Counted from the stretch's first letter, positions 34,874-63,516 are shown. The stretch is DNA of 64,000 nt from an uncultured Eubacteriales bacterium (GCA_905201285.1 CAJKNM010000001.1:4042-68041); one strand, 5' to 3'. Made by a program: numbers and translations. The notes: generated from the letters alone by a model not told the origin.

Positions 34874-37246
34874 TCATTTTAATTCCGCGATGGTGACACC
34901 GTTTTCGCCCTCGCCGTATTTGCCGAGGCGGAAGCTTTTCACGTGGGGGTGACGGCGAAGCATAGTTTGTATGCCGGCACGAAGCGTTCCCGTACCCTTT
35001 CCGTGAATTATGCTGACAGTGTTAAGCCCCGCCATCGCACATTCGTCAAGAAACTTATCCGTTTCCATTTCGGCTTCTTCAAGCGTCATTCCTCTGAGGT
35101 CTATCTCGGATTTAACCGAGTCTCGGCGGAGTCCGCCGCCATATGTCGATACTTTTTTATAGCGTTCGGGTTTCTTTCCCTCCTCCTCGGCAATAAGCGT
35201 CATATTGTCTGCCTTAGCGGTAATCTTCATTATTCCGACCTGAATCACGGCCGTACCGTCTTTTTTGTTAATAGATAATACACTTCCCTTATCACCTAAG
35301 TCATTAATCATTACCTCAGCGCCGAGCTTAAGCGAATTCAGGTTTACGCCTGCTCCTCTCGGAGCGTTTGCCTTTTTTATCTTGGGCGATTTATTGTTCT
35401 TAAGCTTAAGACCCAATTCACGTTTTAATTCCTGAATCTGTCTGAGCGCTTCTTTTTCATCGTGCGCCTTTTGTGCCGCCTGAATCTCTTCAAGCATTTT
35501 ATCAACGTCATTTTGGGTCTTTAAGATAATTTTTTCGGCCTTTTCTCTTGCGCGGTCATAAATTTTATCCTTTTGCTTTTCTATTTTGTCGCGCTCAGCC
35601 GCGAGTTCAGCCTTAAGGCGCTCGGTTTCGGCACGAAGCCGTGCTGTTTCCTCTGAGTTCTTTTCCGCCGAAATTCGGTTATCCTCTATCTTTGACAGTA
35701 CGTCCTCAAACCGAATATTTTCATCTGAAAGCATTTTACGCGAGTTTTCTATAATCCGTTTCGGAAGCCCGAGCTTTTCGGAAATAGCGAACGCGTTACT
35801 ACGGCCCGGAACGCCTATAAGCAAGCGGTATGTCGGGCTGAGAGTGGTCACATCAAATTCACACGAGGCATTTTCGATTCCCGGTGTGGTGAGTGCGTAG
35901 AGTTTTAGTTCGCTGTAATGCGTTGTCGCCGCTATTTTCGCGCCGGCATTTCTGAAATCCTCAATTATTGCGGTCGCAAGGGCCGCGCCCTCGGTCGGGT
36001 CGGTTCCCGCTCCAAGCTCGTCAAAAAGTACAAGACAGCCGTCTGTTACCTTTTCGGAAATTTCAACAATGTTTTTCATATGCGATGAGAAGGTTGAAAG
36101 GCTCTGTTCTATGCTCTGCTCATCGCCGATGTCTGCAAATATATCGGCACAGACCGACAGCTCTGTCTCATCCGCCGCAGGAACGTGAAGTCCCGCCTGT
36201 GCCATAAGGCAAAATAGACCGAGTGTTTTCAATACAACCGTTTTACCGCCTGTATTTGGTCCGGTGATTATCAGCGTGTCGAAGGTTGTTCCCAATTCAA
36301 TGTCTACGGGAACAACCTTCGACTTATCTATAAGCGGATGTCTGCCTTTATGAATCTTAAAGACTCCGCCGCGGTTCATCTTCGGCATTACCGCCTTCAT
36401 ATCAAGTGAAAGCCGTGCCTTTGCCACCACAAAATCAAGATGAATCAATGTTTCAAAGTTAAGACGTATCTCTTCGATGAACTCAGAGACATCATTTGAA
36501 ATATCGAGCAGGACTTTTTCAATCTCCGCACGCTCTTTTACGGTGAGTTCGTTTAGGTCATTGTTTGCGTTTACCACACCCTCGGGTTCGATAAAAACGG
36601 TAGAACCAGAAGCCGACATATCGTGGGCGATACCCCGCACCTCACCGCGAAACTCTGATTTAACGGGAACAACATAGCGGTTGTTTCGGACGGTGACGAT
36701 TGCGTCCTGTAAAAACTTTCTGTAATACTGTGAATGTATCATAGAATCAAGCGTGTCGCGGATTTTTGAAGATGTATTTTTAATTTTCCTGCGGATTCCC
36801 GCAAGCTCGGCGCTTGCGCCGTCCGCCATTTCGTCCTCGGATATAATAGAGGTTGTTATTCTTTCTTCAAGTCTCTTGTTAGGTTCAAGCTCTGTGATAT
36901 ATCCCGACAGGACGCCTGTCTGTTCGGGCGTGTACTGCTTCATCACCCTTGCCCCTTTTAAAATTCGGGAAATGTTTAAAAGCTCTGACATAGAAAGCCC
37001 GCCGCCTGCGTTCAGACGCTTGACAGACTCGGATATATCAGAGATTCTGACAATTTCGGGTGAGCCGAATTTCAACAGAAGCTGAACCGCCGCATCCGTT
37101 TCATCAAGGGTTTGTTCCACTGCACGGATATTGTTTGTCGGAACAAGCTTTAAAGCGAGTTCCTTTGCCGCGTCGTTTTTCGCAAGTGCGGCAAGCCTTT
37201 CGAGTATTTTATCAAATTCAAGAGTTTTCAGAGATTTATGTTCCAT
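34874..37246 (-). CDS. mutS2: Endonuclease MutS2 (MutS domain plus C-terminal Smr)
   Basis: 790 aa. Walker A GPNTGGKTV, FDELGAGTDP, coiled-coil region, Smr tail IIHGKGTGTLR. Confidence 0.9.
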   Translation of the reverse strand: MEHKSLKTLEFDKILERLAALAKNDAAKELALKLVPTNNIRAVEQTLDETDAAVQLLLKFGSPEIVRISDISESVKRLNAGGGLSMSELLNISRILKGARVMKQYTPEQTGVLSGYITELEPNKRLEERITTSIISEDEMADGASAELAGIRRKIKNTSSKIRDTLDSMIHSQYYRKFLQDAIVTVRNNRYVVPVKSEFRGEVRGIAHDMSASGSTVFIEPEGVVNANNDLNELTVKERAEIEKVLLDISNDVSEFIEEIRLNFETLIHLDFVVAKARLSLDMKAVMPKMNRGGVFKIHKGRHPLIDKSKVVPVDIELGTTFDTLIITGPNTGGKTVVLKTLGLFCLMAQAGLHVPAADETELSVCADIFADIGDEQSIEQSLSTFSSHMKNIVEISEKVTDGCLVLFDELGAGTDPTEGAALATAIIEDFRNAGAKIAATTHYSELKLYALTTPGIENASCEFDVTTLSPTYRLLIGVPGRSNAFAISEKLGLPKRIIENSRKMLSDENIRFEDVLSKIEDNRISAEKNSEETARLRAETERLKAELAAERDKIEKQKDKIYDRAREKAEKIILKTQNDVDKMLEEIQAAQKAHDEKEALRQIQELKRELGLKLKNNKSPKIKKANAPRGAGVNLNSLKLGAEVMINDLGDKGSVLSINKKDGTAVIQVGIMKITAKADNMTLIAEEEGKKPERYKKVSTYGGGLRRDSVKSEIDLRGMTLEEAEMETDKFLDECAMAGLNTVSIIHGKGTGTLRAGIQTMLRRHPHVKSFRLGKYGEGENGVTIAELK

Positions 37247-43073: not shown

Positions 43074-45626
43074 TCATAGGGCGCTTTCGCTTAAATATTC
43101 ACGAAGCTCAGCCTCGGCGGCTTCGACCTCGCCGAGAAATTCTCTCGCAGATACCCGATATGCACCGTTACCGAGAATTATGAGCTGTTCCATATAGTCA
43201 GAGGTGGCGACCTTTACATTATAGTTCTTCCCGAGCTTATGCGTTGCTTTTTCTATATAAGAATCCGCGGTTTCGGCTTCCTTTGTATAGACGACGGTTA
43301 TGTTTCCGACTTTTTCTATACTGCCGTGGTTTCCCTTTACTTTATACGCGTCAAAAACGAGAATTACCTCCGCTTTTCGCATTGCACAATACGCACAAAG
43401 GCGATTGGCAAGTGTTGCCCTTGCGAGGTCTAAATCGTCTTCGGCGAGCTTCTTCAGCGAATCCCATGCAAATATTATGTTGTATCCGTCAACGAGGACA
43501 TAATTTCCATCCTTAGGCTTTCGGCGGGTTCCCGTTCGGACGGGAGAAGAATCATTTTTCGGCGTATTCAGAGCATGATGAGCTCTGCGTCGGACCTTTC
43601 CGTAGGTTTTTTCAAATATTTTCAATAATTCTTCGTCATCGGAAAACCCGACGTGATTCTGTCTTACCGGCGGTTCACTCTGCCGAACAACGGGCGTTTC
43701 AAGCTGAGCCGCTGGGAGGTGCATATGACTGAAGACCTCATCCCACTTAACAGTGTATCCTGCCCCATGAGAACAAAACACAGAATCGGCGGTGTTTTCG
43801 ACATCGGCCTCGGCGCTGTATCCGATTTCGTCTATTACCTTTTGGGGGTCGGAACACGGCTCATAGCCGCTGACTTCAAGCGACATTCTGCCCTTGCCCT
43901 TTGTATAGGCAATAAGTTCCGGGTTATAATCACTCATCGCCGAAACAGGTGCGTTTCCGCGGATAATCGAGGTATTCCCGAATGTTTCGGGAGAGGTAAA
44001 TCGGCCGCCCATACGGTTTATATCGGTCATTGCACGTCCAACAGAGTCGGTGAGAAGCTCAATCGTAAACCTGTACCACGGTTCGAGAAGGACGCTTTCG
44101 GCCTGCATCAACCCCTGTCTCAAAGCACGATAGGTTGCCTGACGGAAGTCACCGCCCTCGGTATGCTTTAGGTGTGCCTTGCCCGAAATCAGAGTGATTT
44201 TCATATCGGTTATCGGTGAGCCGGTAAGCACACCGATGTGCTCTTTCTCTTCAAGGTGAGTCAGAACAAGCCGCTGAAAGTTTCGGTCAAGATCGTCCTC
44301 ACTGCATTTAGCGGCAAATTTAAGGCCGCTGCCGCGGTCGAGCGGTTCGAGTAAGAGGTGAACCTCGGCATAGTGCCTGAGCGGTTCATAATGGCCGACG
44401 CCCTCTACACGATTTTTTATTGTTTCTTTATAGATTACACCGCTTTTTTCAAGTTCTATATCCATTCCGAAACGTTCGGACGCAATTCTTTTCACTATTT
44501 CAAGCTGAACTTCGCCCATGAGCTGAATGTTAATGTGATTGAGCCGGCTGTCTTTTACAACATGAAGCTGTGTTTCTTCTTCCTCAAGCTGACGGAGGTT
44601 AGTTATTGCCGTATGCTCATCGAACCCGGGTGGAAGCTTGACAGTATAGGTGAAAACCGGTTCGAGGGTCAGCGGCTCTGAGTCCTGTTCGGCCCCGAAT
44701 CCCTGACCGGGATATGTGCCGGTGAGACCCGTTACCGCACACACGGTTCCGGCCGGCGCTTTCTGAACATTCTTATATTTGAGTCCGGAATATATGCGTA
44801 TTTCGTTTGCTTTTTCCGACAGATTAATATCCAATACATCTTTAACATTCAGACTTCCGCCCGTTATCTTCATATAGGTCAGACGCTTGCCCTTTTCGTC
44901 CTCGGATATTTTAAAAACCTTTGCTCCGAATTCCGGGGTTCGACTCGGCTCGATTGTATAGGCCTCAAGAGCGGCGAGAAGTTCGGAAATTCCGCTTAAT
45001 TTAAGCGCAGAACCGAAAAGACACGGGAAAATCCGCCGCTGTGAAATTGCGGCGGTAAGGGACGCATCCGATACTGTACCGCTTTCTAAAAATTCGTCCA
45101 ATAATTCTTCGCTGCACATCGCCGCCGATTCGGCAAAATCATAAGATTTTGTATCGGCATTAAAATTAACACAGCCATCGCCGAATTTTTCGCGAAGTTC
45201 GCTTAAAAGTTCATCCTGATTTGTGTCAGGTAAGTCCATCTTGTTTATAAAAATAAAGACCGGAATTCCGTGACGTCTGAGAAGCTTCCAGAGCGTTTCG
45301 GTGTGCGGTCGGATGCCGTCTGACGCACTGATGACAAGTATGGCATAGTCAAGAACCTGAAGGGTTCTTTCCGCCTCGGCGGAAAAGTCAATATGCCCCG
45401 GGGTATCAAGCAGAGAGATATAAGTCCTGTCGGTTTCGATTATTGCCTGCTTTGAAAAAATGGTGATTCCGCGTTCACGTTCTATACTTTCGGTGTCAAG
45501 AAAGGCATTGCCGTGGTCTACTCTTCCCGGCTTTTTAATCTGACCGCTCAGGTATAAAAGCCCCTCTGAAAGAGTGGTCTTTCCGCTGTCAACGTGCGCA
45601 AGTATTCCTATCACTAATCTTTTCAT
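43074..45626 (-). CDS. TetM/EF-G-like translational GTPase fused to a C-terminal Rae1/YacP-type NYN ribonuclease domain
   Basis: 850 aa from MKRLVIGILAHVDSGKTTLSEG (GGAGA RBS). G1 AHVDSGKT, G2 RGITI, G3 DTPGH, G4 NKMD, G5 GSALK. Collinear with ribosomal-protection proteins for about 640 aa. Last 143 aa (43077-43505) contain LVDGYN, VFDA, ETADSYIEK, VATSDYMEQ and SAREFLGEVE, as in B. subtilis Rae1. Confidence 0.85.
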   Translation of the reverse strand: MKRLVIGILAHVDSGKTTLSEGLLYLSGQIKKPGRVDHGNAFLDTESIERERGITIFSKQAIIETDRTYISLLDTPGHIDFSAEAERTLQVLDYAILVISASDGIRPHTETLWKLLRRHGIPVFIFINKMDLPDTNQDELLSELREKFGDGCVNFNADTKSYDFAESAAMCSEELLDEFLESGTVSDASLTAAISQRRIFPCLFGSALKLSGISELLAALEAYTIEPSRTPEFGAKVFKISEDEKGKRLTYMKITGGSLNVKDVLDINLSEKANEIRIYSGLKYKNVQKAPAGTVCAVTGLTGTYPGQGFGAEQDSEPLTLEPVFTYTVKLPPGFDEHTAITNLRQLEEEETQLHVVKDSRLNHINIQLMGEVQLEIVKRIASERFGMDIELEKSGVIYKETIKNRVEGVGHYEPLRHYAEVHLLLEPLDRGSGLKFAAKCSEDDLDRNFQRLVLTHLEEKEHIGVLTGSPITDMKITLISGKAHLKHTEGGDFRQATYRALRQGLMQAESVLLEPWYRFTIELLTDSVGRAMTDINRMGGRFTSPETFGNTSIIRGNAPVSAMSDYNPELIAYTKGKGRMSLEVSGYEPCSDPQKVIDEIGYSAEADVENTADSVFCSHGAGYTVKWDEVFSHMHLPAAQLETPVVRQSEPPVRQNHVGFSDDEELLKIFEKTYGKVRRRAHHALNTPKNDSSPVRTGTRRKPKDGNYVLVDGYNIIFAWDSLKKLAEDDLDLARATLANRLCAYCAMRKAEVILVFDAYKVKGNHGSIEKVGNITVVYTKEAETADSYIEKATHKLGKNYNVKVATSDYMEQLIILGNGAYRVSAREFLGEVEAAEAELREYLSESAL

Positions 45627-45688
45627 AATAATCTCCATATTCTCCTTGTTCGCCGCCCTGTGTCGACACAAACAGTTTATCCGTCCTT

Positions 45689-47470
45689 TTATTCGGCAGA
45701 GCCGAGCTGGCTGTTATAAAGCTCGGCATAGAATCCGTTAAGCTTCATCAGCTCGCTGTGTGAACCTTGTTCTATAATATGCCCGTCACGCATTACGAGT
45801 ATTACGTCTGCGTTACAGATTGTGGAGAGCCGATGCGCGACGATAAAGCTTGTCCTGCCGCGCATCATTTCTTCAAACGCCTTTTGAATACGAATTTCGG
45901 TTCGGGTATCAATAGAGCTTGTCGCCTCGTCGAGAATCAGCATAGGCGGAAGAGAAAGCATGACGCGGGCAATGCACAGAAGCTGTTTTTGTCCTTGTGA
46001 GATATTCTCTCCGTTTTCTGAGATAACCGTATCATATCCGTCGGGCAGACGCTTTATAAAGCTGTGAGCGTGCGCCGCCTTTGCCGCGGCAATAATTTCT
46101 TCGTCTGTCGCATCGGGTTTTGAATAAGCGATGTTATTTCGTATTGTGTCGGACTTCAGCCATGTGTCCTGAAGAACCATGCCGAAGTTTCCGCGGAGGC
46201 TGTCACGTGTTATATCTCTTATATCGGTGCCGCTGACCTTTATGCTTCCGCCGGTCACGTCATAGAACCTCATCAGAAGGTTAATAAATGTGGTCTTTCC
46301 ACAGCCGGTCGGCCCGACAATCGCTATTCTCTGACCCGGATGTACATTTAAGTTAAAGCCCTCAATCAGCGGAACATCGGGAAGATACGAAAAACTGACA
46401 TCCTCGATGTCCACACTTCCGTCAGCGTTATTTAAAACGCGTGCGTCCGGCTTGTCGGGGAGCTGAGAGGGTTCTTCTATCAGGTCAAACAGGTGCTTTG
46501 CGGAAGCAAACGCATTTTGAAGCTCGGTTACCACGCCCGAGATTTCGTTAAACGGTTTGGTGTATTGGTTCGCGTATGTCAGGAAGCAGGTAAGCTCGCC
46601 GACGGTTAGGGCAAGACCCGCACCGAAGCTTCCGAGAACGGCGAAGGCGCCGGCAACGCCGACCGTTGCATATACCAGATTATTAACAAATCTTGTTGAG
46701 GGGTTTGTGAGTGATGAGAAAAATACTGCCCTCATTCCGACGTGCTGAAGCCTTCCGTTTATACCGTCAAACCGGCGTTGTGCTTCATTCTCATAGCCAA
46801 AGGCACGAACAGGCTTTTGGTTTCCTATAATTTCTTCGGTGAGAGAGGTGATTTGACTTCTTATTTCGGTCTGCTGTCTGAAAAGCTCATACGTGTGGCT
46901 TGAAACAAATCTTGCAACAAAGAATGACAGCGGAGACATAACCACTACTGCCGCCGTTATTATCGGGTTGATTTTGAACATAAATATGAGTGTTCCTAAA
47001 ATGGTGGCAACGCCGGTGAAGAATTGTGAAAAACCCAGGATAAGTCCGTCGGACAACTGGTCGGCATCGGTGGTTATACGGCTGATTATGTCACCATAGC
47101 CAACCGAATCGATGAATTTGAGCGGAAGTTTCTGCATTTTTGAAAACGCCTTATAACGTACGTCGTTTACGACACCATAGGCAATCCGGTTATTGAAAAT
47201 ACCCATAAGCCACTGTGCGGCGGCGGTCAGAACCGTCACGATTCCGAGACGTATAAGTATAGGAAGAAGTGCGTCAAAATCAACCCTTCCGCGGCCGACA
47301 ATCAAATCGACACCGTTACCGATTACTATAGGCGCATAAAGGGTGAGCGCCACGCTTACCGCCGCAAATATAAGTGACATAATAAATGAATATTTATAGG
47401 TGCTTATCAGCTTTAAAACTTTAATAAGCGTATTTTTTTCGATGGAGCTTGTTTTCGGTTTTTTACTCAT
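45689..47470 (-). CDS. ABC transporter permease/ATP-binding protein
   Basis: Start trimmed to MSKKPKTS (ATGA overlap with the upstream gene). GPTGCGKTT, ISQGQKQL, MLILDEATSSID. Confidence 0.9.
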   Translation of the reverse strand: MSKKPKTSSIEKNTLIKVLKLISTYKYSFIMSLIFAAVSVALTLYAPIVIGNGVDLIVGRGRVDFDALLPILIRLGIVTVLTAAAQWLMGIFNNRIAYGVVNDVRYKAFSKMQKLPLKFIDSVGYGDIISRITTDADQLSDGLILGFSQFFTGVATILGTLIFMFKINPIITAAVVVMSPLSFFVARFVSSHTYELFRQQTEIRSQITSLTEEIIGNQKPVRAFGYENEAQRRFDGINGRLQHVGMRAVFFSSLTNPSTRFVNNLVYATVGVAGAFAVLGSFGAGLALTVGELTCFLTYANQYTKPFNEISGVVTELQNAFASAKHLFDLIEEPSQLPDKPDARVLNNADGSVDIEDVSFSYLPDVPLIEGFNLNVHPGQRIAIVGPTGCGKTTFINLLMRFYDVTGGSIKVSGTDIRDITRDSLRGNFGMVLQDTWLKSDTIRNNIAYSKPDATDEEIIAAAKAAHAHSFIKRLPDGYDTVISENGENISQGQKQLLCIARVMLSLPPMLILDEATSSIDTRTEIRIQKAFEEMMRGRTSFIVAHRLSTICNADVILVMRDGHIIEQGSHSELMKLNGFYAELYNSQLGSAE

Positions 47471-49218
47471 TTCGATATCCTTTCTGCGGCTGTGCCGGCC
47501 AACTCCTCGGGAATCTGTGTTGCACATATCTCGCGGTATATTTCGCAACTTTCAAGAAGCTCTTTATGCATGCCCATTCCTACGGCTGAGCCGTCATCCA
47601 GAACAAGAATCAAATCTGCATCGCGGATGGTTGAAATTCTCTGTGATACGATTACCTGTGTCATATTGGGATTAGCCTTTGAAAGAGCGCGGCGAAGCCT
47701 TGCTTCGGTCATAAGGTCAAGGGCGGATGAGCTGTCATCGAGTATCAGAATCTCGGGGTCTGAAACCAGCGCCCTTGCAATCGTAAGCCTTTGACGCTGT
47801 CCGCCGGAAAAATTCTTGCCTTCCTGAGAAACAGAGGTGTCAAGACCGTCTTTTTCAAAGATAAAGTCATACGCCTGGGCGGTTTTAAGGGCGTTGATTA
47901 TTTCGTTATCATCCGCGTTTTCATTGCGCCAGCGCATATTTTCACGGATTGTTCCCGTTAGGAGTGATGCCTTTTGAGGAACATATCCGATTTTTCCGCG
48001 GAGCTGTTTGAAGCTCATATTTCTGACATCCGTGCCGTCAATTTTGACACTTCCCGAGGTGGCATCATAAAATCTCGGTATCAGGTTGACAAGCGTACTC
48101 TTGCCTGAACCTGTTCCGCCTATTATGCCTATATTTTGACCGCGTTTTAGCTTAAAGCTGATGCCGGACAGCGCATCCTCTTTAGAACCCGAATATTCAA
48201 AGCTGACATTGTCAAATTCCAGTACGGTGTCGCTGCTGTCTGCGACGGCCGCGTCTGCGGCATCGTCGGTCATATCGGGCTGAAGCTCTAATACCTCGGC
48301 AATACGCGTTCCCGATGCCATTGCTTTGGTCAGCGTAACTATGAGCTGGGCAAGCACAAGCATGGCAACAAGAATCTGGGTGAGATAGTTCACCATCGCG
48401 ACAACCTCGCCCTGCTGCATACCGCCTATGTTTACGCGGATTCCGCCGACCCAGAGCACAGCGATAACGGCGAGGTTTACAACTATATAAGTCAGCGGGT
48501 TCATCAATGCCGATATGCTTCCGACCTTCTCGTTTATGCTCATAAGCTCGGCGTTTGCGTCAGAGAAGCTTTCTATTTCGGCACCTTGACGCGAGAAGGC
48601 TCTGATTACACGGACCCCGGTCAGGTTTTCGCGGGTGATTTGAGATACCCGGTCAAGACTTGTTTGAGCCTTTTTATAAAAGGGAACGGAAATATGCATC
48701 AGAATATAGATTAAAAGCCCCATAACGGGAACGGCAACCAAAAATACAACAGCCACCCTTGCGTCAAGCATAAGCGCCGCCGCCATTGCGCCGATAACGA
48801 TAAAGGGCGAACGCAAAAACAAACGAAGAAACATATTAACACCCGATTCGGCGCGGTTGATGTCGCCTGTGATTCTTGTGATAAGCGAGGATGTGCCGAA
48901 TTTGTCAAGCTGTGACATAGACAGCGAGTTAATTTTTTTGAACATATCTCGGCGGACCGCCGTTCCGAAGCCGTAGGCGGCCCTTGCCGCAAAGAACTGC
49001 GCCGTAAGGGCGCTGCAAAGGCCTAAAATTCCCATAAGAACAAGAACGCCGCACATTTTAAGAATATATTCTCTGTCAGAGCCGGCAATACCGGTATCGA
49101 TTATGTGTGCCATAATGACGGGAACGGTCAGCTCAAAACAGGCTTCCAAAAATTTAAACAGCGGAGCCATTATACATTCCTTTATATATCCTCTGAGGTA
49201 TTTTATCAATTTAAACAT
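47467..49218 (-). CDS. ABC transporter permease/ATP-binding protein
   Basis: Start trimmed to MFKLIKYLRGY. GGTGSGKST, FSGGQRQR, ILILDDSSSALD. Heterodimer partner of the downstream gene. Confidence 0.9.
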   Translation of the reverse strand: MFKLIKYLRGYIKECIMAPLFKFLEACFELTVPVIMAHIIDTGIAGSDREYILKMCGVLVLMGILGLCSALTAQFFAARAAYGFGTAVRRDMFKKINSLSMSQLDKFGTSSLITRITGDINRAESGVNMFLRLFLRSPFIVIGAMAAALMLDARVAVVFLVAVPVMGLLIYILMHISVPFYKKAQTSLDRVSQITRENLTGVRVIRAFSRQGAEIESFSDANAELMSINEKVGSISALMNPLTYIVVNLAVIAVLWVGGIRVNIGGMQQGEVVAMVNYLTQILVAMLVLAQLIVTLTKAMASGTRIAEVLELQPDMTDDAADAAVADSSDTVLEFDNVSFEYSGSKEDALSGISFKLKRGQNIGIIGGTGSGKSTLVNLIPRFYDATSGSVKIDGTDVRNMSFKQLRGKIGYVPQKASLLTGTIRENMRWRNENADDNEIINALKTAQAYDFIFEKDGLDTSVSQEGKNFSGGQRQRLTIARALVSDPEILILDDSSSALDLMTEARLRRALSKANPNMTQVIVSQRISTIRDADLILVLDDGSAVGMGMHKELLESCEIYREICATQIPEELAGTAAERISK

Positions 49219-49523
49219 AATGTAAAAAATCTCCGTTCCGCCGCAGAGCGGCAAGATTCTCTGTTGATTGTACTATTTGATTATAAAAATTATTAGGACA
49301 ATTTATATTATTTTATCATATTTTTCGGAAAATAACAACAATTTAAACAATAATTATTATACATAAATTCCGGCCTTGCGGCGGGACAGGTGTGTAAAAT
49401 TTGCCAACGACACTAAATGACACTTTGTTTTGTGTAAGAATATGAATGTGAGCGGCGGAGATGTGTAAATTAACCTGCTCCGGCCGCTTAATTTAGAAAA
49501 TTTTATGAAGGGAGTGGCATATA

Positions 49524-50426
49524 ATGCCGAATTTTACTACACCGATTCCGCCGAAGCTGACGGGAAACTCAGCGGAGGATATCGGTAAAATCAAACAGTG
49601 GGGAACAGCACTTGTGGACGAGCTGACCTATTTGTTTAATAATCTGGACAGCGGAAATGTAACGGAGGCAGCCTCGGTTAAGGCAGAGAATATTGACGCC
49701 ACCAACGCGCGGATAAGCAATGCGCAGATAGGGAAGCTTTCGGCCGATAAGTTAAAGGCAGGAAGCATAGATACGGGGGTTGTTAATGTAAGGGATAAGA
49801 ACGGAAGGCTGAGTATTAGCGGTTCAAGCATAGTGATAAGCGACGGAAGCCGAAAAAGGTTTGTTGCTGAATATGATAAACAAAGCAATGCTTTCAGGTT
49901 TGTTCTTTATAATAAGGACGGCGACCCGACAGTCGGAATAGGAAGCAGCGGAGATGCGGTTTTCAACGGTACGGTAGAGAGCAGTACGATATATGCGTCT
50001 ACAATCATAGGAACGGACAGTGCGTCATATCAGAATGAAAACGGCGGAGTTTTTGCGAATATAAACCAAACGGGAATTAAGATAATGCAGGACAAAAACG
50101 GACGGCAGCAGAAGCTGGGAATGACGGTCGCAAACGACGGAACAGCGTATCTGATTCTGGGAGCGGGTGACGGAAACGGTAAGATGACCTTTAACGGAGT
50201 GACATATACCAACGGGTCGTTTGTGGTTGAAAAATGTGATAAGTATACAAGTATGGGCATAATCGGCGGAAAGCCGTTTATAACCTTTTGGGACGAAAGC
50301 GGGGATTTATGGCTGAACGGAAACAAGGTTTATATGAACGGCACAGATGTGAATCTTAAGCTTTCAAATATTGAAAGTGAAATTAAAAGTATTAAAAGCC
50401 GCATAAGTGCGCTTGAGAGCAAGTAA
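49524..50426 (+). CDS. Phage tail-fibre/receptor-binding-like protein
   Basis: 300 aa. N-terminus MPNFTTPIPPKLTGNSAEDIGKIKQWGTALVDELTYLFNNLDSGNV typical of siphophage Gp58-like fibre proteins as I recall them. C-terminal coiled coil LKLSNIESEIKSIKSRISALESK. Own terminator hairpin at 50438-50468. Confidence 0.55.
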   Translation: MPNFTTPIPPKLTGNSAEDIGKIKQWGTALVDELTYLFNNLDSGNVTEAASVKAENIDATNARISNAQIGKLSADKLKAGSIDTGVVNVRDKNGRLSISGSSIVISDGSRKRFVAEYDKQSNAFRFVLYNKDGDPTVGIGSSGDAVFNGTVESSTIYASTIIGTDSASYQNENGGVFANINQTGIKIMQDKNGRQQKLGMTVANDGTAYLILGAGDGNGKMTFNGVTYTNGSFVVEKCDKYTSMGIIGGKPFITFWDESGDLWLNGNKVYMNGTDVNLKLSNIESEIKSIKSRISALESK

Positions 50427-50567
50427 AAAAAGCTTATGCGTTTCCGAAAAAAGTCGGGAAACGCATGGACGCAATAACCTCTTATCATTTCTTACCCTGC
50501 GGATAAGAGAGTTTTATTACTATATTATATATTATGCCGATGCAGGGCGGCGGATAAGGAGATTATT

Positions 50568-52196
50568 ATGAATGAATCATATAACGGAAAAATAAAGCAG
50601 GAGTTTTTTTCAAAGGTAGTAGAGTCTTTTAATATGTATAAGGAACATAAAAAGGCGCTTGACAGACGTATAATCGAGAATAATCGGTGGTTTAAGGCGA
50701 GGTATAACAACAATAAAATTGAGATTGACGAGCCGGTGACACCGTATCTGTTTAATATTATTGCGAACAAGCACGCCGATGCGATGGATAATTATCCTGA
50801 ACCGAATGTTCTTGAAAGAGAGGAAAGCGACCGCGAGACAGCCGAGATGTTTACAAAAATCCTGCCGCTTCAGCTTGACCTGTGCGGATTTAAAAGAACA
50901 TACAGCCGTGCGTGGTGGTACAAACTCAAAAACGGAGCTTCGTGCTATGGGGTATTTTATAACCCGACCTTGTGCGGAAGTATGGGCGAGATTGACATTA
51001 AAAAAATTGATTTGCTGAATATCTTTTGGGAACCGGGAGTGACTGATATTCAAGACAGCAAGTTTTTGTTCATAACGGCTCTGTGCGATAATGATGCATT
51101 AAAGGCGAAGTATCCGCAGTACGCGGACCGTTTCAGCGGCTCTGCTGCCCTGGACACAAGAACATATGACGATATGGAAAGCGGAACAAACACAGATATA
51201 TTAAAGGATAAAAGTCTTGTGGTGGATTGTTACTATAAAAAACAGCGCGGAGATACGCATACGGTAGAGCTTATAAAGTTTTTTGACGATACGATTCTCG
51301 ATGCATCGGAGGATCGCGGCGACTGTGGATTGTATGATCACGGTATGTATCCGTTTGTTTTTGACGTGCTGTATCCCGATGAGGACAGTCCTGTAGGGTT
51401 CGGAATGGTTGACATAATTAAAAATCCGCAGATGTATATAGACAAACTTGATGCGATTATAAGCAAAAATGCAATGATTTCGGGAAAGACAAGATTTATG
51501 ATAAAAGACAACGGGGGACTTAATGAATATGAGCTGACGGATTTGTCAAAGGATATAATTCATTCGGCGGGTTCGGTCGGTGATGACAACATTCGTGAAC
51601 TTCAGGCAAAGCCGCTTCATCCGTTTATTATTCAGCACCGTTCAAACAAGATAAATGAGATAAAAGAAGTATCGGGAAATCTCGATTTTCAACAGGGAGA
51701 CGTAACCGGCGGCGTAACGGCGTATTCTGCCATTGTTGCCCTTCAGCAGGCAGGCGAAAAGCTGTCACGCGATATGATAGGCGAGGGATATGAGGCATAC
51801 AAGAGAATTATCTATTTCTGTATTGAGCTTATTCGTCAATTTTATGATGAGCCGCGTTCATATCGTATAGCAGGCGATGACGGCGGATGCGAGTATGTTA
51901 CCTTTTCAAACGAGAGCCTGAGGGGAGCAGGAACGCGGCTTCCTGCTGAATTTGATATTGCGGTCAGTGCGGAAAAAAATAATCCGTACAGCAGAGTGGC
52001 ACAAAATCAAACGCTTACGGATTTATGGAAGATGGGTCTTTTCCATAGGGACACAATACGCGAATCAATCCTTATGCTTGAATGTATGCATTTAGACGGA
52101 AAAGAAAAACTGATTGAAGGACTTCGTAAAATCGCATCAGAGCAAGACCCTGCCGATAACGGCAAGGCTGTCGCGGAAGGAAATCCTGAGCGATGA
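50568..52196 (+). CDS. Phage portal protein
   Basis: 542 aa. Size and acidic C-terminus fit a portal and it sits in a phage-gene context. The family assignment is from general resemblance only. Confidence 0.6.
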   Translation: MNESYNGKIKQEFFSKVVESFNMYKEHKKALDRRIIENNRWFKARYNNNKIEIDEPVTPYLFNIIANKHADAMDNYPEPNVLEREESDRETAEMFTKILPLQLDLCGFKRTYSRAWWYKLKNGASCYGVFYNPTLCGSMGEIDIKKIDLLNIFWEPGVTDIQDSKFLFITALCDNDALKAKYPQYADRFSGSAALDTRTYDDMESGTNTDILKDKSLVVDCYYKKQRGDTHTVELIKFFDDTILDASEDRGDCGLYDHGMYPFVFDVLYPDEDSPVGFGMVDIIKNPQMYIDKLDAIISKNAMISGKTRFMIKDNGGLNEYELTDLSKDIIHSAGSVGDDNIRELQAKPLHPFIIQHRSNKINEIKEVSGNLDFQQGDVTGGVTAYSAIVALQQAGEKLSRDMIGEGYEAYKRIIYFCIELIRQFYDEPRSYRIAGDDGGCEYVTFSNESLRGAGTRLPAEFDIAVSAEKNNPYSRVAQNQTLTDLWKMGLFHRDTIRESILMLECMHLDGKEKLIEGLRKIASEQDPADNGKAVAEGNPER

Positions 52197-52835
52197 ATAG
52201 TCCGTGTTTACGGCCGTCAGAAGAATATCGTCACCGCGATAGTCAAGGCGGCGGCAATATATCGTGCCGTTCAGAATAAACAGGCCGATTTCGTCTCCTG
52301 AAAGCTGAGGAGTGTATTTGATAAATTTAATCTCGCCCTTGCAGAGCACAGGCTCCATACTGGTATCGGTGATACATACGGCGGCATCGGCGTTATCGGG
52401 GGCATCAAGTTCGATTTCAAAACAGTCTGAGGTGCAAAAGAGACGGTCGGATGCCATCGGTGACAGATGTGTATAAACGGGAAGCCTGCGCCGCGATGAA
52501 CCTTGACGAAGACGCATTGCGTCATATTCATAGTTAAGACAGTTATATACCGCGGCGCGCCCGGCGTCATCAAGACCGGTTAACTTGCTGATTGCACAGA
52601 GGTCAAGAACGCGATGTCTTTTGAGACTGTCGGACGCAAAGTATTCAGAGATATTGTCTATTCCGTATTTTGCACAGATACGCAAAAAGACATCAATAGA
52701 CGGCTCTGACTTGCCGGTTTCCCACGAGCTGAAAGTGGATTGGCTTACACCGAGCCAATTATATACGTCACGCTGTGACAATCCGGCGTCTTTGCGTGCT
52801 TGCTGAAGCTTCTGACATATGTTTTTGTTTGCCAT
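52137..52835 (-). CDS. Phage CI/LexA-like repressor (XRE HTH plus S24 peptidase-like domain)
   Basis: 232 aa. HTH LQQARKDAGLSQRDVYNWLGVSQSTFSSWETGKSEP. C-terminal TDTSMEP...GDEIGLFILNGTIYCRRL resembles the S24 Ser/Lys dyad region. Its 3' end overlaps the portal 3' end by 60 nt. Confidence 0.8.
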   Translation of the reverse strand: MANKNICQKLQQARKDAGLSQRDVYNWLGVSQSTFSSWETGKSEPSIDVFLRICAKYGIDNISEYFASDSLKRHRVLDLCAISKLTGLDDAGRAAVYNCLNYEYDAMRLRQGSSRRRLPVYTHLSPMASDRLFCTSDCFEIELDAPDNADAAVCITDTSMEPVLCKGEIKFIKYTPQLSGDEIGLFILNGTIYCRRLDYRGDDILLTAVNTDYSSLRISFRDSLAVIGRVLL

Positions 52836-52959
52836 AATTTATTTACTCCGTTTCGCCGTGTGAAGTCGGTATTGTAGGACTAATCTTGTTGTAAGAAAAA
52901 GGAAAGCCCGTATATGAATTTTAACCAAATAAGAATAATGGCCCTAATAACCGCTATTA

Positions 52960-53075
52960 TATAATATCATATTTATAGATATTTGTCAACATAATATGAT
53001 ATTTTTTGATAAAGTTTTATTGACTATCGCATAATTCGATATATAATATTAAGTATAACCGATATTTCGATATTA
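52960..53075. promoter_or_regulatory. Phage immunity-type control region with repeated operator-like sites
   Basis: Two 11-bp palindromes AATATCATATT (52963) and AATATGATATT (52993). Promoter TTGACT-16 nt-TATAAT (53020-53047). Three CGATAT hexamers (53036, 53060, 53068). Confidence 0.45.
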
Positions 53076-53114
53076 TTGTCAGGAAAATACCAAAAGGAAA
53101 GGAGATGATACGAT

Positions 53115-53312
53115 ATGACACATCCCGACATAGTTACAGCAGAGATATTCGGTGGTTATCCATCGCGGGACATAGAAGAACGTTTGGGAGAGTGCATATA
53201 CTGTGAACAGCCTGTTTATGATAACGGCGAGGCAGTACAGAGCACTGACGGATTGTTCTGCAATATGGATTGTTGCTGTGAATATTATGAAATCACAAAT
53301 ATAAACAGATAA
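53115..53312 (+). CDS. Small Cys-rich hypothetical phage protein
   Basis: 65 aa. CIYC...CNMDCCC. AAGGAGA RBS. Confidence 0.4.
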   Translation: MTHPDIVTAEIFGGYPSRDIEERLGECIYCEQPVYDNGEAVQSTDGLFCNMDCCCEYYEITNINR

Positions 53313-53328
53313 AACTCAAACAGAAAGG

Positions 53329-53721
53329 ATGTTTAAAATGACGTTAAATAATGTAAAGGAAGTAAAGGAATGGCTTAGAAATATTCCGCTTGTTAAGGCG
53401 GAACTGACTTTAAAGATAAAGTTTTATCAAGAGCTTGAAAATGAATTCAATAAGGCAGAGGATTTTGAAAAATCACTTAGATATTACCGCGGTCAGATAG
53501 AGAGCCTTCAGCATAAGATGGAAACACTTATGGAGGATGTGGACAGGCTTTTCGGAATTTTGGACGAGAACGAAAGGCTTGTTATGGTTGCGAGATACAT
53601 AAATCTGATTCGGTGGGATTATATAGAGTTCCATGTGTTCTACAGCAGAAGGCAGGCAATCAGAGTCCATGACCACGCCCTTTTAAAGCTTGTGGGACAG
53701 GCGGTAGGTGAACAGGAATGA
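53329..53721 (+). CDS. Phage transcriptional regulator with sigma-70 region-4-like HTH (ArpU/RinA-like role)
   Basis: 130 aa. ERLVMVARYINLIRWDYIEFHVFYSRRQAIRVHDHALLKL. Positioned just upstream of the terminase genes. Confidence 0.5.
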   Translation: MFKMTLNNVKEVKEWLRNIPLVKAELTLKIKFYQELENEFNKAEDFEKSLRYYRGQIESLQHKMETLMEDVDRLFGILDENERLVMVARYINLIRWDYIEFHVFYSRRQAIRVHDHALLKLVGQAVGEQE

Positions 53722-53939
53722 ATGAAGAAAAAGAGCTTATTAACGATAATCGGAATGAAAGCGAAGAACTCGAACCGAAAATTTCGGATAGGGCGTATGA
53801 CAAGCTTGTTCAGCTTATGTCCTGCGAGAATGAAAGAGTTGCTTTAGCGGCGGCCAAAGAGATTATGTCAATCTATGAAAAAGAAGACACGGCCGCGGAC
53901 GGCGATATAAGCTTAGAGGTTACCATTAAGGTTATTTGA
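53718..53939 (+). CDS. Small acidic hypothetical phage protein (possible small-terminase remnant)
   Basis: 73 aa. 4-nt overlap with the upstream gene. No motif recognised. Confidence 0.35.
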   Translation: MNEEKELINDNRNESEELEPKISDRAYDKLVQLMSCENERVALAAAKEIMSIYEKEDTAADGDISLEVTIKVI

Positions 53940-53969
53940 CGGGTGATAATGCACGGGGGGATAATGTAA

Positions 53970-55379
53970 ATGAAGAAATCAAGAAAAGAAAAGCTATACT
54001 TAGAGCTTACAAAGACACAAAAGCAGTTTATGGATGCAGAGGCGGACGAGGTATTGTTCGGCGGAGCCGCGGGTGGCGGAAAGTCATACGGACAGCTCGC
54101 AGATGCTCTGATTTACGCGCTGAAATACCCTAAAAGCCGCCAGCTTATACTCAGAAAGACGTATCCCGAGCTTGAACATTCGCTGATTCTGGTTTCTCTC
54201 GGGTTCTATCCTAGGGCTGTCTGCACTTATAACTCAAGCAGCAGGAAATGGAATTTTTTAAACGGTTCTATAATTGAATTTGGTTATTGTGCAGCCAAAA
54301 CCGATGTGCTTAGGTATCAGGGTGCGGAATATGATGTGGTGAGATTTGATGAGCTTACTCACTTCACCGAGGATCAATATACATACTTAATTTCGAGAGT
54401 GAGGGGTGTAAATCCCTACCCGAAGATGGTTAAATCAAGCACGAACCCCGGCGGAGTAGGACACAACTGGGTTAAACACAGGTTTATAGACGGCTTTGAA
54501 CCGAATAAGGTTCATACGGATAAAGAGACCGGGGCGCGCCGGCTCTTCATACCGTCGTATGTAAATGATAATGTGTTCCTTATGCGTGCCGATGCCGATT
54601 ATATAAACAGGCTTAAACAGCTTCCTGAGAAGGAACGAAAGGCACTTTTGTGCGGCGAATGGGATATATTTGACGGTCAGGTTTTTGCCGAATGGAGGAA
54701 TTCGGCATTGGGGAGAAAGACCCGAAGATGGTCGCACGTGATTGAACCGTTTGAGATTCCTAAGGAGTGGCGGAGGTATCGGGCTTTTGACTTTGGATAT
54801 TCAAAACCCTTTGCCGTGTCTTGGTATGCGGTTGACGGTGACGGAAGGGCGTATAATTATCGTGAGCTTTACGGATGCACGGGTGAGCCGGATGTGGGAA
54901 TCCGCTGGACAGCGCAAAAAATTGCGGATGAGATACGAAAGATAGAGGAAACCGAGGATTCGGGGCTGCACATAACCGGGGTGGCGGACCCCGCCATATG
55001 GAATAACACAGGAACCGAGGATGGAAGTATAGCTGATATGATGGAGAGAAGGGGAGTTTATTTTGAAAAGGGAAACCACAACCGCCTTGCCGGAAAGATG
55101 CAGGTTCATTACCGGCTTGCGTTTGATGAGGAAGGCCTTCCTATGATATATTTTTTTGAAAATTGCAGAAATATTATAAGAACGCTTCCGCAGCTGGGCT
55201 ATGATTCCACCCGGCCGGAGGACGTTGACACCTCTCAGGAGGATCACCTCTATGATGCTTTGAAATATTTTCTGATGATGAATCCCATCGGGATGAGACC
55301 GTGCAGTGAACCGAAAAAGAAAGAATTTAATCCTCTCGACACAGAAGAAATAAGTCTGTATCCGAGATTTATAGTTTGA
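53970..55379 (+). CDS. Phage terminase large subunit
   Basis: 469 aa. Walker A FGGAAGGGKSY, Walker B-like VVRFDELTHF, C-terminal nuclease-type acidic motifs (AFDFGYS, GVADPA, QEDHLYDALKY). Confidence 0.85.
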   Translation: MKKSRKEKLYLELTKTQKQFMDAEADEVLFGGAAGGGKSYGQLADALIYALKYPKSRQLILRKTYPELEHSLILVSLGFYPRAVCTYNSSSRKWNFLNGSIIEFGYCAAKTDVLRYQGAEYDVVRFDELTHFTEDQYTYLISRVRGVNPYPKMVKSSTNPGGVGHNWVKHRFIDGFEPNKVHTDKETGARRLFIPSYVNDNVFLMRADADYINRLKQLPEKERKALLCGEWDIFDGQVFAEWRNSALGRKTRRWSHVIEPFEIPKEWRRYRAFDFGYSKPFAVSWYAVDGDGRAYNYRELYGCTGEPDVGIRWTAQKIADEIRKIEETEDSGLHITGVADPAIWNNTGTEDGSIADMMERRGVYFEKGNHNRLAGKMQVHYRLAFDEEGLPMIYFFENCRNIIRTLPQLGYDSTRPEDVDTSQEDHLYDALKYFLMMNPIGMRPCSEPKKKEFNPLDTEEISLYPRFIV

Positions 55380-55447
55380 GACTTTCGTTTTTGGGTGAGT
55401 ACGTGGTCGCGGAATAAACTAAATGAGAGTGACACATTCTGTCACTC

Positions 55448-56359
55448 TCATTTTAATGTTGCTACATATTTTTTAATCATAAAAACGGGGTGATAGGATT
55501 CCTTAGCCTTTCGCATCCCGGGAATCCCCATATCCTCCTCACGGTTTACATAGGTATAATCCTGCCATTCGTGCTCTAAAAACTGTTGATTTATCATAGT
55601 GAATGCACCTTCGCATTCGGGGTCAACGTGTTCAAAATGAATAACAACGGTATCACCGCACAGCGGTTCGCCAAAGGTGAAGGCAACAAGCCTTCCGCCC
55701 ACGCGGAGGCCTCCGCCGATATAGCCGAGAGATGCCCAACTGTTCAAGAATTCACAGATTGCCTCGCGTTCCTCACTAATGCTTTCGGCCTCCCAGCCCT
55801 TTCCGACCTGCCATTCGTCAAACAGATTCATACACTCGGCGTTATTTTCGGGCGTCAGCCGGCAATATTCCCAGTCGGGGTACAGCTTTTTAAATCTGTT
55901 TATGTGGTTCTTTTTAGAGTGAAACTTCTTTCCGGCGAGTTTTGTGAGTTCGTCAATCCTATAGACATAGTCAAAGTTGTTTCTGTCCTCGGTTATGATA
56001 AATTTATCCGGAAATTCTTCAACAAGCATTTTCATTGTGTTTTCATCATACAGATGAATGAGCGGTTCATCACCGCTTTCTTTAAAGTAATCCAAAAGTT
56101 CATCTATAAAATGCTTTATGCTTCGGGTTGTTCCGTCGGGGTTTTCAAATCCGATAGGAAAGCTCGCACTTCGCGGCCCGTCGGTGTGCTTCGGCAGGAC
56201 ACAAAGCATATCGTCGATGACGGCATACTTCATATCATAGCTCTTTCGCCACATATAGAGATAAGAAAACGAAAATTCCGAATTCTTGCTCTTTCTTCGG
56301 CGAAGAAATTCGTTGATGAACTCTTTTTTATCGAGAGTAATATCGTTTAATTCCAGCAT
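55448..56359 (-). CDS. DUF2156 (phosphatidylglycerol lysyltransferase C-terminal-like, GNAT-fold) protein
   Basis: Start trimmed to MLELNDITLDKKEFINEFL (AGGAGG RBS). SEFSFSYLYMWRKSYDMKYAVIDDML matches the family N-terminus as I recall it. Confidence 0.65.
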   Translation of the reverse strand: MLELNDITLDKKEFINEFLRRRKSKNSEFSFSYLYMWRKSYDMKYAVIDDMLCVLPKHTDGPRSASFPIGFENPDGTTRSIKHFIDELLDYFKESGDEPLIHLYDENTMKMLVEEFPDKFIITEDRNNFDYVYRIDELTKLAGKKFHSKKNHINRFKKLYPDWEYCRLTPENNAECMNLFDEWQVGKGWEAESISEEREAICEFLNSWASLGYIGGGLRVGGRLVAFTFGEPLCGDTVVIHFEHVDPECEGAFTMINQQFLEHEWQDYTYVNREEDMGIPGMRKAKESYHPVFMIKKYVATLK

Positions 56360-56367
56360 AAATCCTC

Positions 56368-61372: not shown

Positions 61373-61501
61373 TCGCATAGAATTGTTACCCACACGGCTG
61401 AGTCCGTTTATATATTCCGTCGCTCTGCGGCGGTTGTGGGAGGGATGCGCATACGTATTCCCGATATTACCACGTTTGTGAAATGAGGAGGTGTATTCAT
61501 A

Positions 61502-61927: not shown

Positions 61928-61996
61928 TTCGACGGTTCTTAAAATAGTGGGAGGGGCGCAAGACGTCCTGCTGAACCACCATAGGAGGATTTTAAA

Positions 61997-62689: not shown

Positions 62690-62699
62690 GATAAAAATT

Positions 62700-63452: not shown

Positions 63453-63516
63453 TTTTCGGATTGTGATTATTTATTAAAAAACTTAAAGAAATTTTATAAT
63501 ATGGAGGAAATTTAAA

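Follow-up and report, generated by a model that had tools for sequence, protein, structure and literature searches.

The subject of the present analysis is a window of 64,000 nucleotides of DNA from an uncultured Eubacteriales bacterium (GCA_905201285.1, CAJKNM010000001.1:4042-68041), and in particular a gene on its minus strand that joins a GTPase resembling EF-G and the tetracycline ribosomal protection (Tet) proteins to a nuclease domain of the Rae1 (YacP) type. According to the list of open reading frames (ORFs), a single frame at positions 43074..45626, stop codon counted, encodes a protein of 850 aa (MKRLVIG...), and the Pfam architecture unfolds within this frame. The start was read directly from the sequence and is the ATG at whose Met, MKRLVIGILAHVD, the consensus of 75 relatives also begins. 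Two longer readings of the ORF can be drawn, one from an upstream TTG at 45671, giving 865 aa, and one from an ATG at 45638, which would lengthen the protein by 4 aa. A Shine-Dalgarno-like GGAG (45633..45636, minus strand), located 6 nt upstream of the ATG of the 850-aa reading, is what we infer to be the ribosome-binding site of the gene, while a stronger AAGGAGA (45641-45647) stands ahead of the alternative ATG.

Residues 1-593 constitute an intact five-domain GTPase of the EF-G/Tet type. In the Pfam search, for which the gathering scores are 27 for EFG_III, 27 for EF-G_D2, and 24.6 for NYN_YacP, the G domain (residues 4-223, 44958..45617, minus strand, as are all parts of the gene given below) is matched by GTP_EFTU with E = 5.8e-52. 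It is followed by domain II (residues 233-304, 44715..44930; EF-G_D2, 28.4 bits), which is beta-rich in the AlphaFold2 (AF2) model, by domain III (residues 322-393, 44448..44663), for which EFG_III stays just under its cutoff with 25.2 bits, by domain IV (residues 397-509, 44100..44438; EFG_IV, E = 4.4e-20), and by domain V (residues 512-593, 43848..44093; EFG_C, E = 2.5e-19). The G motifs are G1 AHVDSGKT (10-17), RGIT (52-55), G3 DTPGH (74-78), G4 NKMD (128-131), and G5 GSALK (205-209). Conservation was mapped over 77 full-length representatives (clusters at 50% identity), 75 closer relatives, and 12 very distant ones; the G motifs are invariant or nearly so in the first two sets, and the catalytic-type His78 of DTPGH is invariant in the 75 sequences. 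The G' insert is short, as in the Tet proteins, and the G domain aligns to TetO in one stretch and to EF-G in two. In a Foldseek comparison, the body of the AF2 model matches ribosome-bound EF-G with E = 1.4e-51 over ~680 aligned columns. We regard the GTPase as complete and presumably active at the factor site.

Two conserved, family-specific motifs are found at the tip of domain IV, namely GVGHYEPLRHYAEVHL (residues 409-424; nt 44355-44402) and KAHLKHTEGGDFRQA (residues 483-497; nt 44136-44180), with the patterns G-x-G-H-F/Y-E-P-L-R-H-Y-A-E-V (409-422) and A-H-x-K-H-T-E-G-G-D-F-R-Q-A (484-497), respectively. These motifs are unusually rich in invariant charged and His residues, namely H412, E414, R417, H418, H485, K487, H488, E490, D493, and R495, of which H485 aligns with the loop-tip His of EF-G. 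Taken alone, domain IV scores 43.9 bits with EF-G, compared to 34.7 with TetO and 31.4 with TetM. The protein thus has the overall fold in common with EF-G (and EF-G2-type paralogues), and its domain IV is slightly nearer to EF-G than to Tet; it differs from EF-G in the shorter G' insert, in a loop I of domain IV that is four residues shorter and carries another conserved motif, and in the added nuclease.

The nuclease domain occupies residues 708-850 (43077..43505) and is defined by Pfam and by alignment to the structures of B. subtilis YacP/Rae1 (PDB 5MQ8/5MQ9). The NYN_YacP model (PF05991) matches residues 710-845 with E = 5e-47 and 160.4 bits, over model positions 1-138 of 166, so the domain is without the ~28-residue C-terminal tail of the model. 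The identity to B. subtilis Rae1 is 44.9% over 136 aa (E = 1e-24) and that to a clostridial stand-alone YacP 50.7%. Since the LVDGYN, VFDA, ETAD, and ATSD motifs are all retained, D713, D759, D788, and D810 can be equated with D7, D53, D81, and D104 of Rae1, and the four residues are invariant in the family, distant members included. D7 and D81 are reportedly the residues that were mutated in the original Rae1 work. With the fold and the four acidic residues in common, the chemistry and the kind of substrate, i.e., mRNA on stalled or collided ribosomes, are by analogy probably the same as for B. subtilis Rae1. The setting is different: Rae1/YacP is a free protein of ~170-180 aa whose gene ends the cysS-mrnC-rlmB(yacO)-yacP cluster, whereas the domain considered here forms the C-terminal end of a GTPase of 850 aa that is encoded at an unrelated locus, and its recruitment to the ribosome would be built into the fusion.

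The span between domain V and the nuclease domain, ~115 aa, is only partly a linker. Its first part, residues 594-636 (43719..43847), is an element defined by conservation and by AF2, which models it as helix, beta-hairpin, and helix (helices at 594-601 and 628-634, strands at 615-619 and 622-626) with a predicted local distance difference test (pLDDT) score of ~76-84. The family alignment gives the motif Y..D..N..SVFCxHGAG..V.W..V...MH for the conserved segment 588-636. No Pfam model describes the element, and TetM and EF-G have nothing equivalent. A zinc site made up of C591, C618, H620, and H636 was considered for it and is unsupported, both Cys being invariant in close relatives and replaced in distant ones.

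The second part, residues 637-707 (43506..43718), is a basic, Pro-rich tether, predicted to be disordered, with AF2 pLDDT below 50 for residues 644-668 and 670-702 and variable alignment columns. Its length and sequence vary among relatives outside an ELxxIFxxTYG motif (666-676), which is the sole conserved feature of the tether and is embedded in EELLKIFEKTYG (residues 665-676; nt 43599-43634) in the window protein; E666, L667, I670, F671, E672, Y675, and G676 are invariant among the closer relatives. The AF2 model, calculated with the family alignment, has a mean pLDDT of 79.5 and a predicted template modelling (pTM) score of 0.55, the five GTPase domains and the NYN domain being confident, and the Foldseek search found no PDB entry that spans both the GTPase and the NYN halves. 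Because residues 644-702 are disordered in the model and no PDB entry covers both halves, we describe the nuclease as held, according to the prediction, on a flexible leash of ~70 residues and not rigidly docked.

We have also considered whether the conserved tether motif is the relocated tail of Rae1, since HMMER weakly pairs DEELLKIFEKT of the linker with SEEVLKTFEKL at the C-terminus of Rae1. This idea was rejected: a PDB search with the linker came back empty, none of 10 isolated linkers matches the NYN_YacP profile, and some longer family members retain the YacP tail at their own C-terminus.

The original prediction for this gene was that an uninterrupted 850-codon ORF joins two modules, namely a complete translational GTPase with all five G motifs and a last stretch of 143 aa that matches Rae1 motif for motif. 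The ORF list and Pfam, in one frame, agree with the first point, Pfam and the invariant columns with the second, and NYN_YacP together with the 5MQ8/5MQ9 alignment and all four acidic residues with the third; the proposed check of both halves with Pfam hidden Markov models (HMMs) thus recovers every claimed module, EFG_III lying marginally under its gathering score. Two further statements had to be narrowed. The collinearity with TetM/TetO/EF-G is found, but over less than the ~640 aa claimed, as the TetO match covers residues 1-591 (TetO 1-613). Likewise, the description of the interdomain region as a basic, Pro-rich linker is apt for the disordered residues ~637-707 but not for 594-636, which form the conserved, modelled element.

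The same architecture is widespread. A first protein search returned 120 clusters with 58-99% identity, all 841-881 aa long and with the same Pfam architecture, the nearest database relatives being metagenome proteins that are 91-99% identical to the window protein. A HMMER search with the linker and NYN half only, against 1.84 billion representative proteins, gave 2,995 matches at E <= 1e-3 and 420 clusters (50% identity) at E <= 1e-30; the best 150 of the 420 clusters all match across linker and NYN, and their full-length members measure 799-1156 aa and are nearly all labelled Clostridia. Extra domains in the long members (960-1156 aa) were looked for and rejected, the additional length consisting only of G-domain insertions and longer linkers. 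A genome scan with one genome per species confirmed at least 591 relatives, and the best 80 loci were analyzed. In 72 of these, ORF calling yields one ORF of 839-925 aa with the G1 and NYN motifs, and tblastn adds L029; six of the other seven are ended by contig edges (L080 among them), and one, L073, carries a lone frameshift, at residue 183/184, within the G domain and away from the junction. None of the 80 loci holds a genuinely split version. With an uninterrupted ORF in ~73 of 80 independent species-level genomes, the fusion is a real gene and no assembly or frameshift artefact. The suggestion that the architecture be sought across genomes is thereby answered, and the concern raised with it, that the junction might be artefactual, is not upheld.

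Fusions of Tet-like GTPases to NYN_YacP in Clostridia have been reported by Atkinson 2015 (BMC Genomics, Additional file 8) and by Matelska et al. 2017 (NAR). The published listing holds ten sequences from nine species, and both papers are computational and leave the function open (Atkinson 2015; Matelska et al. 2017). The species are R. albus 7, E. eligens, E. rectale, B. proteoclasticus, C. cellulolyticum, C. lentocellum, L. phytofermentans, C. thermocellum, and D. hafniense (Atkinson 2015, Additional file 8). Residues 2-845 of the window protein align with residues 3-849 of R. albus 7 YP_004106010.1 at 54% identity, the domain order is identical, and the motifs GHFEPLRHYAEVHL, KHTEGGDFRQA, SVFCxHGAG, and LLVDGYNIIFAW are common to both the window protein and the family. 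By these comparisons, the window protein belongs to a Clostridia-wide family of Tet-like GTPase-NYN_YacP proteins, in which it represents an uncultured gut lineage and shows no architectural difference. The family is far larger than published, counting at least 591 species-level genomes and no fewer than 150 clusters at 50% identity. The architecture is already catalogued and its function is unexplored: we found no functional study of any fusion member in the searched literature, and the two most recent Rae1 papers, of 2025 and 2026, make no mention of the fusion, although one includes a survey of Rae1 in 18,663 genomes. The statement of the original prediction that it knew of no characterized member agrees with this search, but its claim to novelty went too far, as the architecture itself has been in print since 2015 and 2017 and is also present in databases with Pfam annotation. 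New here are the scale of the family, the tests that set it apart from Tet, the layout of the C-terminal half, the lack of a conserved context, and the analysis of the yacP slot, to which we turn now.

In Firmicutes, yacP is normally the last gene of gltX-cysE-cysS-mrnC-yacO(rlmB)-yacP, upstream of sigH (Matelska et al. 2017). On the contig of locus L089, a fusion gene (68% identical) and cysE-cysS-mrnC lie 4 kb apart, and mrnC is followed by unrelated genes, with no yacP. As a proxy for replacement, 53 metagenomic mrnC loci related to L089 were scanned with an HMM of the fusion-family NYN domain, which recognizes B. subtilis Rae1, the positive control, with E = 3e-44. Of the 26 loci whose sequence continues for at least 3 kb beyond mrnC, 25 have no NYN ORF. 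The exception, L132, serves as an in-clade control: it has the order cysS-mrnC-(two-gene insertion)-rlmB-yacP, and its YacP of 178 aa covers the full Pfam model. The insertion in L132 (1464-3214) encodes an AAA_21/AAA_15 ATPase and a DUF4276 protein and resembles a small defence-type cassette.

In L100, L117, L119, and L138, a SpoU-type rlmB is followed directly by a gene for a SigH-like sigma-70 factor (with a 22-nt gap in L100), and in three of the four the nusG-rplKAJ genes come next. Because rlmB directly precedes the SigH-like gene, yacP is missing precisely from its slot. The mrnC locus L097, which is without yacP, and the fusion-bearing L003 come from one assembly. In the window, nusG-rplK-rplA-rplJ-rplL (60848-63885, with the L10 leader at 62697-62823) is preceded by tatD and a phosphoglucomutase gene, from 57690, and rlmB-yacP-sigH, the usual upstream genes in Firmicutes, are missing there. 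A second NYN gene was found neither in the window nor in 83 loci (the 80 genome-scan loci and L001-L003). With yacP absent from its canonical slot in 25 of the 26 mrnC loci, free Rae1 has probably given way to the fusion in these lineages. The proposal made earlier to ask whether carriers lack a stand-alone yacP is thus answered for the canonical slot, by a locus-level proxy and not for whole genomes.

What is known of free Rae1 frames the interpretation. Rae1 cuts mRNA 12 nt upstream of the A-site codon on stalled ribosomes, and the manner in which the free protein gets recruited to ribosomes is unsettled (PMC12407103). In 2025, the laboratory behind the idea of 2017 that Rae1 enters the A site wrote that this idea rested mainly on docking. 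A preprint of September 2026 reports that Rae1 is needed for the rise in transfer-messenger RNA (tmRNA) tagging after ribosome collisions and that it generates substrates of trans-translation on collided ribosomes (PMC13622287).

The reading that we favour, and in which our confidence is about evenly balanced, is by analogy that of a Rae1 tethered by a GTPase, which would cleave mRNA on ribosomes that have stalled or collided. The GTPase body would dock in the factor-binding site of a ribosome that is unable to proceed, either one that has stalled while its A site is accessible or a trailing one that has collided and awaits translocation. The docking would raise the local concentration of the tethered nuclease, which would cut the mRNA at or beside the docked ribosome, and the cut would supply a substrate to trans-translation, as reported for free B. 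subtilis Rae1. GTP hydrolysis on the sarcin-ricin loop would then release the factor, so that each binding event would allow one time-limited cleavage attempt. From published disome and EF-G structures, the most economical geometry would place the body on the trailing ribosome of a collided pair, since this ribosome, held in the pre-translocation state, would be a natural substrate of an EF-G-like factor, and its mRNA entrance would face the tail of the leading ribosome, where Rae1 cuts.

This arrangement departs from that of the original prediction, in which both modules dock at the A site and the GTPase delivers the nuclease there, and which rests on the superseded docking hypothesis of 2017. 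The shared-A-site argument fails because Rae1 is now reported at the tail of the stalled or collided ribosome, and also because domain IV of a bound factor of the EF-G/TetM type would itself fill the A site.

Taken together with the empty yacP slot, the family lends itself to a broader view, which we put forward only tentatively: a GTPase-gated Rae1 may have replaced free Rae1 in a large part of Clostridia (Oscillospirales, Lachnospirales, Monoglobales, and Acetivibrionales, as far as Desulfitobacterium), with cleavage at stalls and collisions licensed via the GTPase-associated centre. In such a system the EF-G-like body would recognize a ribosome unable to translocate or decode, the ~70-aa leash would reach the mRNA between the collided ribosomes, and GTP hydrolysis would reset the factor. 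If this is true, the GTPase-gated Rae1 would be a bacterial rescue factor of a not yet described kind, and it would reveal the side of the ribosome from which nucleases of the Rae1 type act.

Functional analogues can be found in SmrB of E. coli, MutS2 of B. subtilis, and Cue2 and Hbs1-Dom34 of yeast, which have in common with the proposed mechanism the concept of a ribosome-state sensor working with an mRNA-cutting nuclease for rescue; in MutS2, likewise, an NTPase is joined to a nuclease-type domain, Smr. The analogy is functional only, as there is no kinship in sequence or fold and none of these systems fuses a translational GTPase body to a nuclease. The architecture will be of little surprise to readers of surveys of translational GTPases or PIN domains, but it offers a testable lead for the Rae1 ribosome-rescue pathway, and it is a clue and a tool for the question of Rae1 recruitment, timely after the recasting of Rae1 in 2025-2026. 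Since some carriers, namely C. thermocellum, C. cellulolyticum, R. albus, and D. hafniense, are in culture and amenable to genetics, the hypothesis is directly testable.

Several points weigh against the proposed role. For this family, the substrate, the state of the ribosome, and the part played by GTP are carried over by analogy throughout. On a single ribosome, the factor-binding site lies on the side of mRNA entry and the A site, and the mapped cut of Rae1 is on the exit (tail) side, so the tether would have to reach round the 30S subunit or the body would have to bind the trailing collided ribosome. No linkage to ssrA/smpB or other rescue genes appears in the 76-locus survey. The replacement argument is indirect, as it is built on a locus-level proxy; a free yacP may lie elsewhere in the carrier genomes, and for most of the mrnC loci without yacP no connection to a fusion-carrying genome can be made. 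Finally, the traditional neighbours of yacP, mrnC and rlmB, are rRNA-processing genes, which fits a different function.

This different function, which is the main rival and had been suggested by Atkinson, is that of an rRNA-directed (or tRNA-directed) processing or ribosome-decay nuclease, with the body on the 70S ribosome or on late assembly intermediates and the NYN domain trimming or cleaving rRNA. Atkinson 2015 and Matelska 2017 link YacP to rRNA/tRNA maturation because its gene shares an operon with mrnC (Mini-III, 23S maturation) and with the yacO/rlmB methyltransferase gene, and this mrnC/rlmB operon, with or without yacP, is found in gut Clostridia. From what is generally known of EF-G and TetM complexes, a factor at the GTPase centre would have its C-terminus near the rRNA elements of the decoding and factor-binding regions, and the charge-rich, family-specific tip of domain IV could recognize an rRNA feature. 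The only experiments on this nuclease family, however, show translation-dependent cleavage of mRNA and rescue of stalled or collided ribosomes (PMC13622287, PMC12407103). The NYN domain is 45-51% identical to stand-alone YacP, with an unchanged active site, which suggests the same kind of substrate, and no rRNA-processing neighbours of the fusion gene are conserved, the linkage to gltX/cysS/mrnC being found in 4 of 89 loci. We therefore consider the rRNA-directed role unlikely, though deserving of a hearing. The possibility that the linkage to gltX/cysE/cysS/mrnC is ancestral was also examined; 4 of 89 loci compare with ~1 expected by chance, which is too weak to use.

Much less probable is that the protein is a genuine tetracycline ribosomal protection protein with an accessory RNase domain. 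The top whole-length matches are indeed Tet proteins. The best NCBIfam model is tet_protect (NF012153; 392.6 bits, E = 2.6e-117), and with PDB sequences the whole protein scores 242 bits for TetO, 235 for TetM, and 226 for EF-G, TetO and TetM aligning in one collinear stretch. The five-domain body, the Tet-like G domain with its short G', and the ~590-aa collinear alignment are common to TetM/TetO and the fusion, which presumably use the same ribosomal factor site. The curated cutoff of tet_protect is 775, however, so its score is only half of what the model demands, and all specific Tet models are far under theirs (tet_protect_M_W 272/1100, Tet(M) 232/1420, Tet(Q) 256/1425, Otr(A) 285/900), as are the EF-G equivalogs (TIGR00484 286.8/659.4; PRK12740.1-5 339/583). 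EF-G is nearly equal to Tet on the whole protein and better on domain IV alone.

A more specific point concerns loop III of domain IV, in which Tet proteins conserve a Y-S-P-V motif. In a review, Pro509 of TetM is described as occupying the tetracycline pocket against C1054 (PMC8161019). The loop 506-YYSPVST-512 of TetO aligns with 484-AHLKHTE-490, a sequence conserved across the fusion family, and Pro509 of TetO therefore corresponds to the near-invariant Lys487. Moreover, Tet proteins are ~640 aa long and end in a short C-terminal segment soon after domain V, whereas the fusion extends to 850 aa with the conserved element, the tether, and the nuclease instead.

The window gene lies after a heterodimeric pair of ABC (ATP-binding cassette) exporter genes on the same strand, which can be counted in favour of this reading, but this linkage is limited to the immediate lineage; the gene is otherwise chromosomal, syntenic in close relatives, present in at least 591 species-level genomes, and in no mobile-element context. 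No report of tetracycline resistance from any fusion-family member was found in the searched literature. As far as sequence comparison can tell, the evidence says that the fusion protein is not a tetracycline ribosomal protection protein, and the earlier advice against a default tetracycline-resistance label is borne out by the HMM scores, the missing Pro509 loop, and the mislabelled relatives.

The labels themselves are of some consequence. Public names of relatives range from 'TetM/TetW/TetO/TetS family tetracycline resistance ribosomal protection protein', as given by the Prokaryotic Genome Annotation Pipeline (PGAP), to 'NYN domain-containing protein', 'translation factor GTPase family protein', and 'small GTP-binding protein'. 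The same pipeline names the 933-aa fusion of A. rectalis (L143, NZ_CP143948.1) TetM/TetW/TetO/TetS and the 862-aa fusion of Monoglobus pectinilyticus (L144, NZ_OY725736.1) 'translation factor GTPase family protein'; in L143, a BrnT/CopG toxin-antitoxin pair is located just upstream, on the opposite strand. Automated pipelines give many of these chromosomal housekeeping genes a TetM/TetW/TetO/TetS label, which can inflate resistome counts. The gut Clostridia of humans and animals, Agathobacter rectalis included, carry the family in abundance, and it is a recurrent source of false tetracycline-resistance calls.

The genomic setting is that of a chromosomal, housekeeping-type gene and not of a mobile one. 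The fusion gene occurs once per fetched locus (flanks up to 10 kb), no neighbour gene family is conserved in 76 loci (the commonest is a generic ABC ATPase, in 8 loci and at scattered positions), and the window locus is fully syntenic with that of a 91%-identical relative from human gut metagenomes. Plasmid matches are few, and 27 of the 29 are on non-mobilizable replicons; the two matches with the fused architecture, L143 and L144, are on replicons of 252 kb and 518 kb with core genes such as map, secA, and ssb. Homologues are also found in two human faecal virome records named 'UNVERIFIED: Bacteriophage sp.', L084 (MT835563.1) and L085 (MT835514.1). The latter is bacterial chromosomal DNA, because addA/addB, feoB, gltX (directly after the fusion gene), and a DinG-like helicase gene are on it, and the former shows no phage hallmark among the ORFs checked. 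Carriage by phages or plasmids was therefore rejected, the virome scaffolds being unverified and the plasmids housekeeping-rich and non-mobilizable.

These data bear on another role that the original prediction had named, a phage-induced shutdown of translation. As an effector of stress- or phage-triggered shutdown or defence, the protein would act like a toxin, as an RNase that depends on the ribosome and is let loose upon infection. RNases of this kind are common among toxins, prophage remnants (portal, terminase, S24/helix-turn-helix (HTH) repressor) lie 4-10 kb off, and the two 'Bacteriophage sp.' records carry a homologue. Against this, no PADLOC-DB model matched at E <= 0.01, no antitoxin, immunity protein, or sensor partner is conserved in the 76 loci, the 'phage' records are the unverified scaffolds just discussed, one of bacterial DNA and the other without a phage hallmark, and the gene is present once per locus in hundreds of species with conserved synteny. 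The phage-induced role is thus unsupported, and we consider a defence effector highly improbable. The weakest alternative, namely a Tet-like GTPase gene and an adjacent yacP joined by mis-assembly or a sequencing frameshift, has nothing in its favour, the lone frameshift of L073 lying off the junction, and with the intact ORF found in isolates as well, in-frame motifs conserved in the linker, and the end-to-end identity with the R. albus protein it is already refuted by the comparative data, so that we give it practically no weight.

The prophage remnant in the window extends over 49524-56428, just upstream of the ABC genes, with a P22-like portal gene (50568-52196), a large terminase gene (53970-55379), and a gene for an HTH/S24 LexA-like repressor (52137-52835, minus strand). 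It looks old and fixed, because portal and repressor are at the same place in the 91%-identical relative. An Rfam search of the window gave no structured RNA near the fusion gene, the only matches being the L10 leader and one tRNA elsewhere. A gene for MutS2 (790 aa, MutS_V, MSSS, and Smr; 34874-37246, minus strand), a homologue of the ribosome-collision sensor of B. subtilis, is located ~6 kb from the fusion gene and is syntenic in the 91%-identical relative; its proximity is probably a coincidence, since the neighbourhood is not conserved in other carriers.

The two ABC exporter genes (47467-49254 and 45689-47548, minus strand) overlap, and each encodes ABC_membrane and ABC_tran domains; the pair recalls heterodimeric exporters of the BmrCD type. 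The gap of 62 nt between the second ABC gene and the fusion gene has no terminator-like site and one weak promoter-like match, and the pair and the fusion gene are apparently co-transcribed. In B. subtilis, Rae1 targets the bmrBXCD mRNA, and since it cleaves this message, the idea of a functional operon is tempting. A functional operon as a trait of the family was nevertheless rejected: besides the window, the 91%-identical relative alone has the pair, which is missing from L001, L003, L089, and the 76-locus survey. As the local arrangement is not conserved beyond that relative, we give it no functional weight. The gap also contains a perfect 12-bp palindrome, TGTGTCGACACA (45659-45670, minus strand), which lies over a weak -35-like TCGACA and may be an operator or a product of chance. 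At the other end of the fusion gene, mscL converges on it, with its stop codon 3 nt distant.

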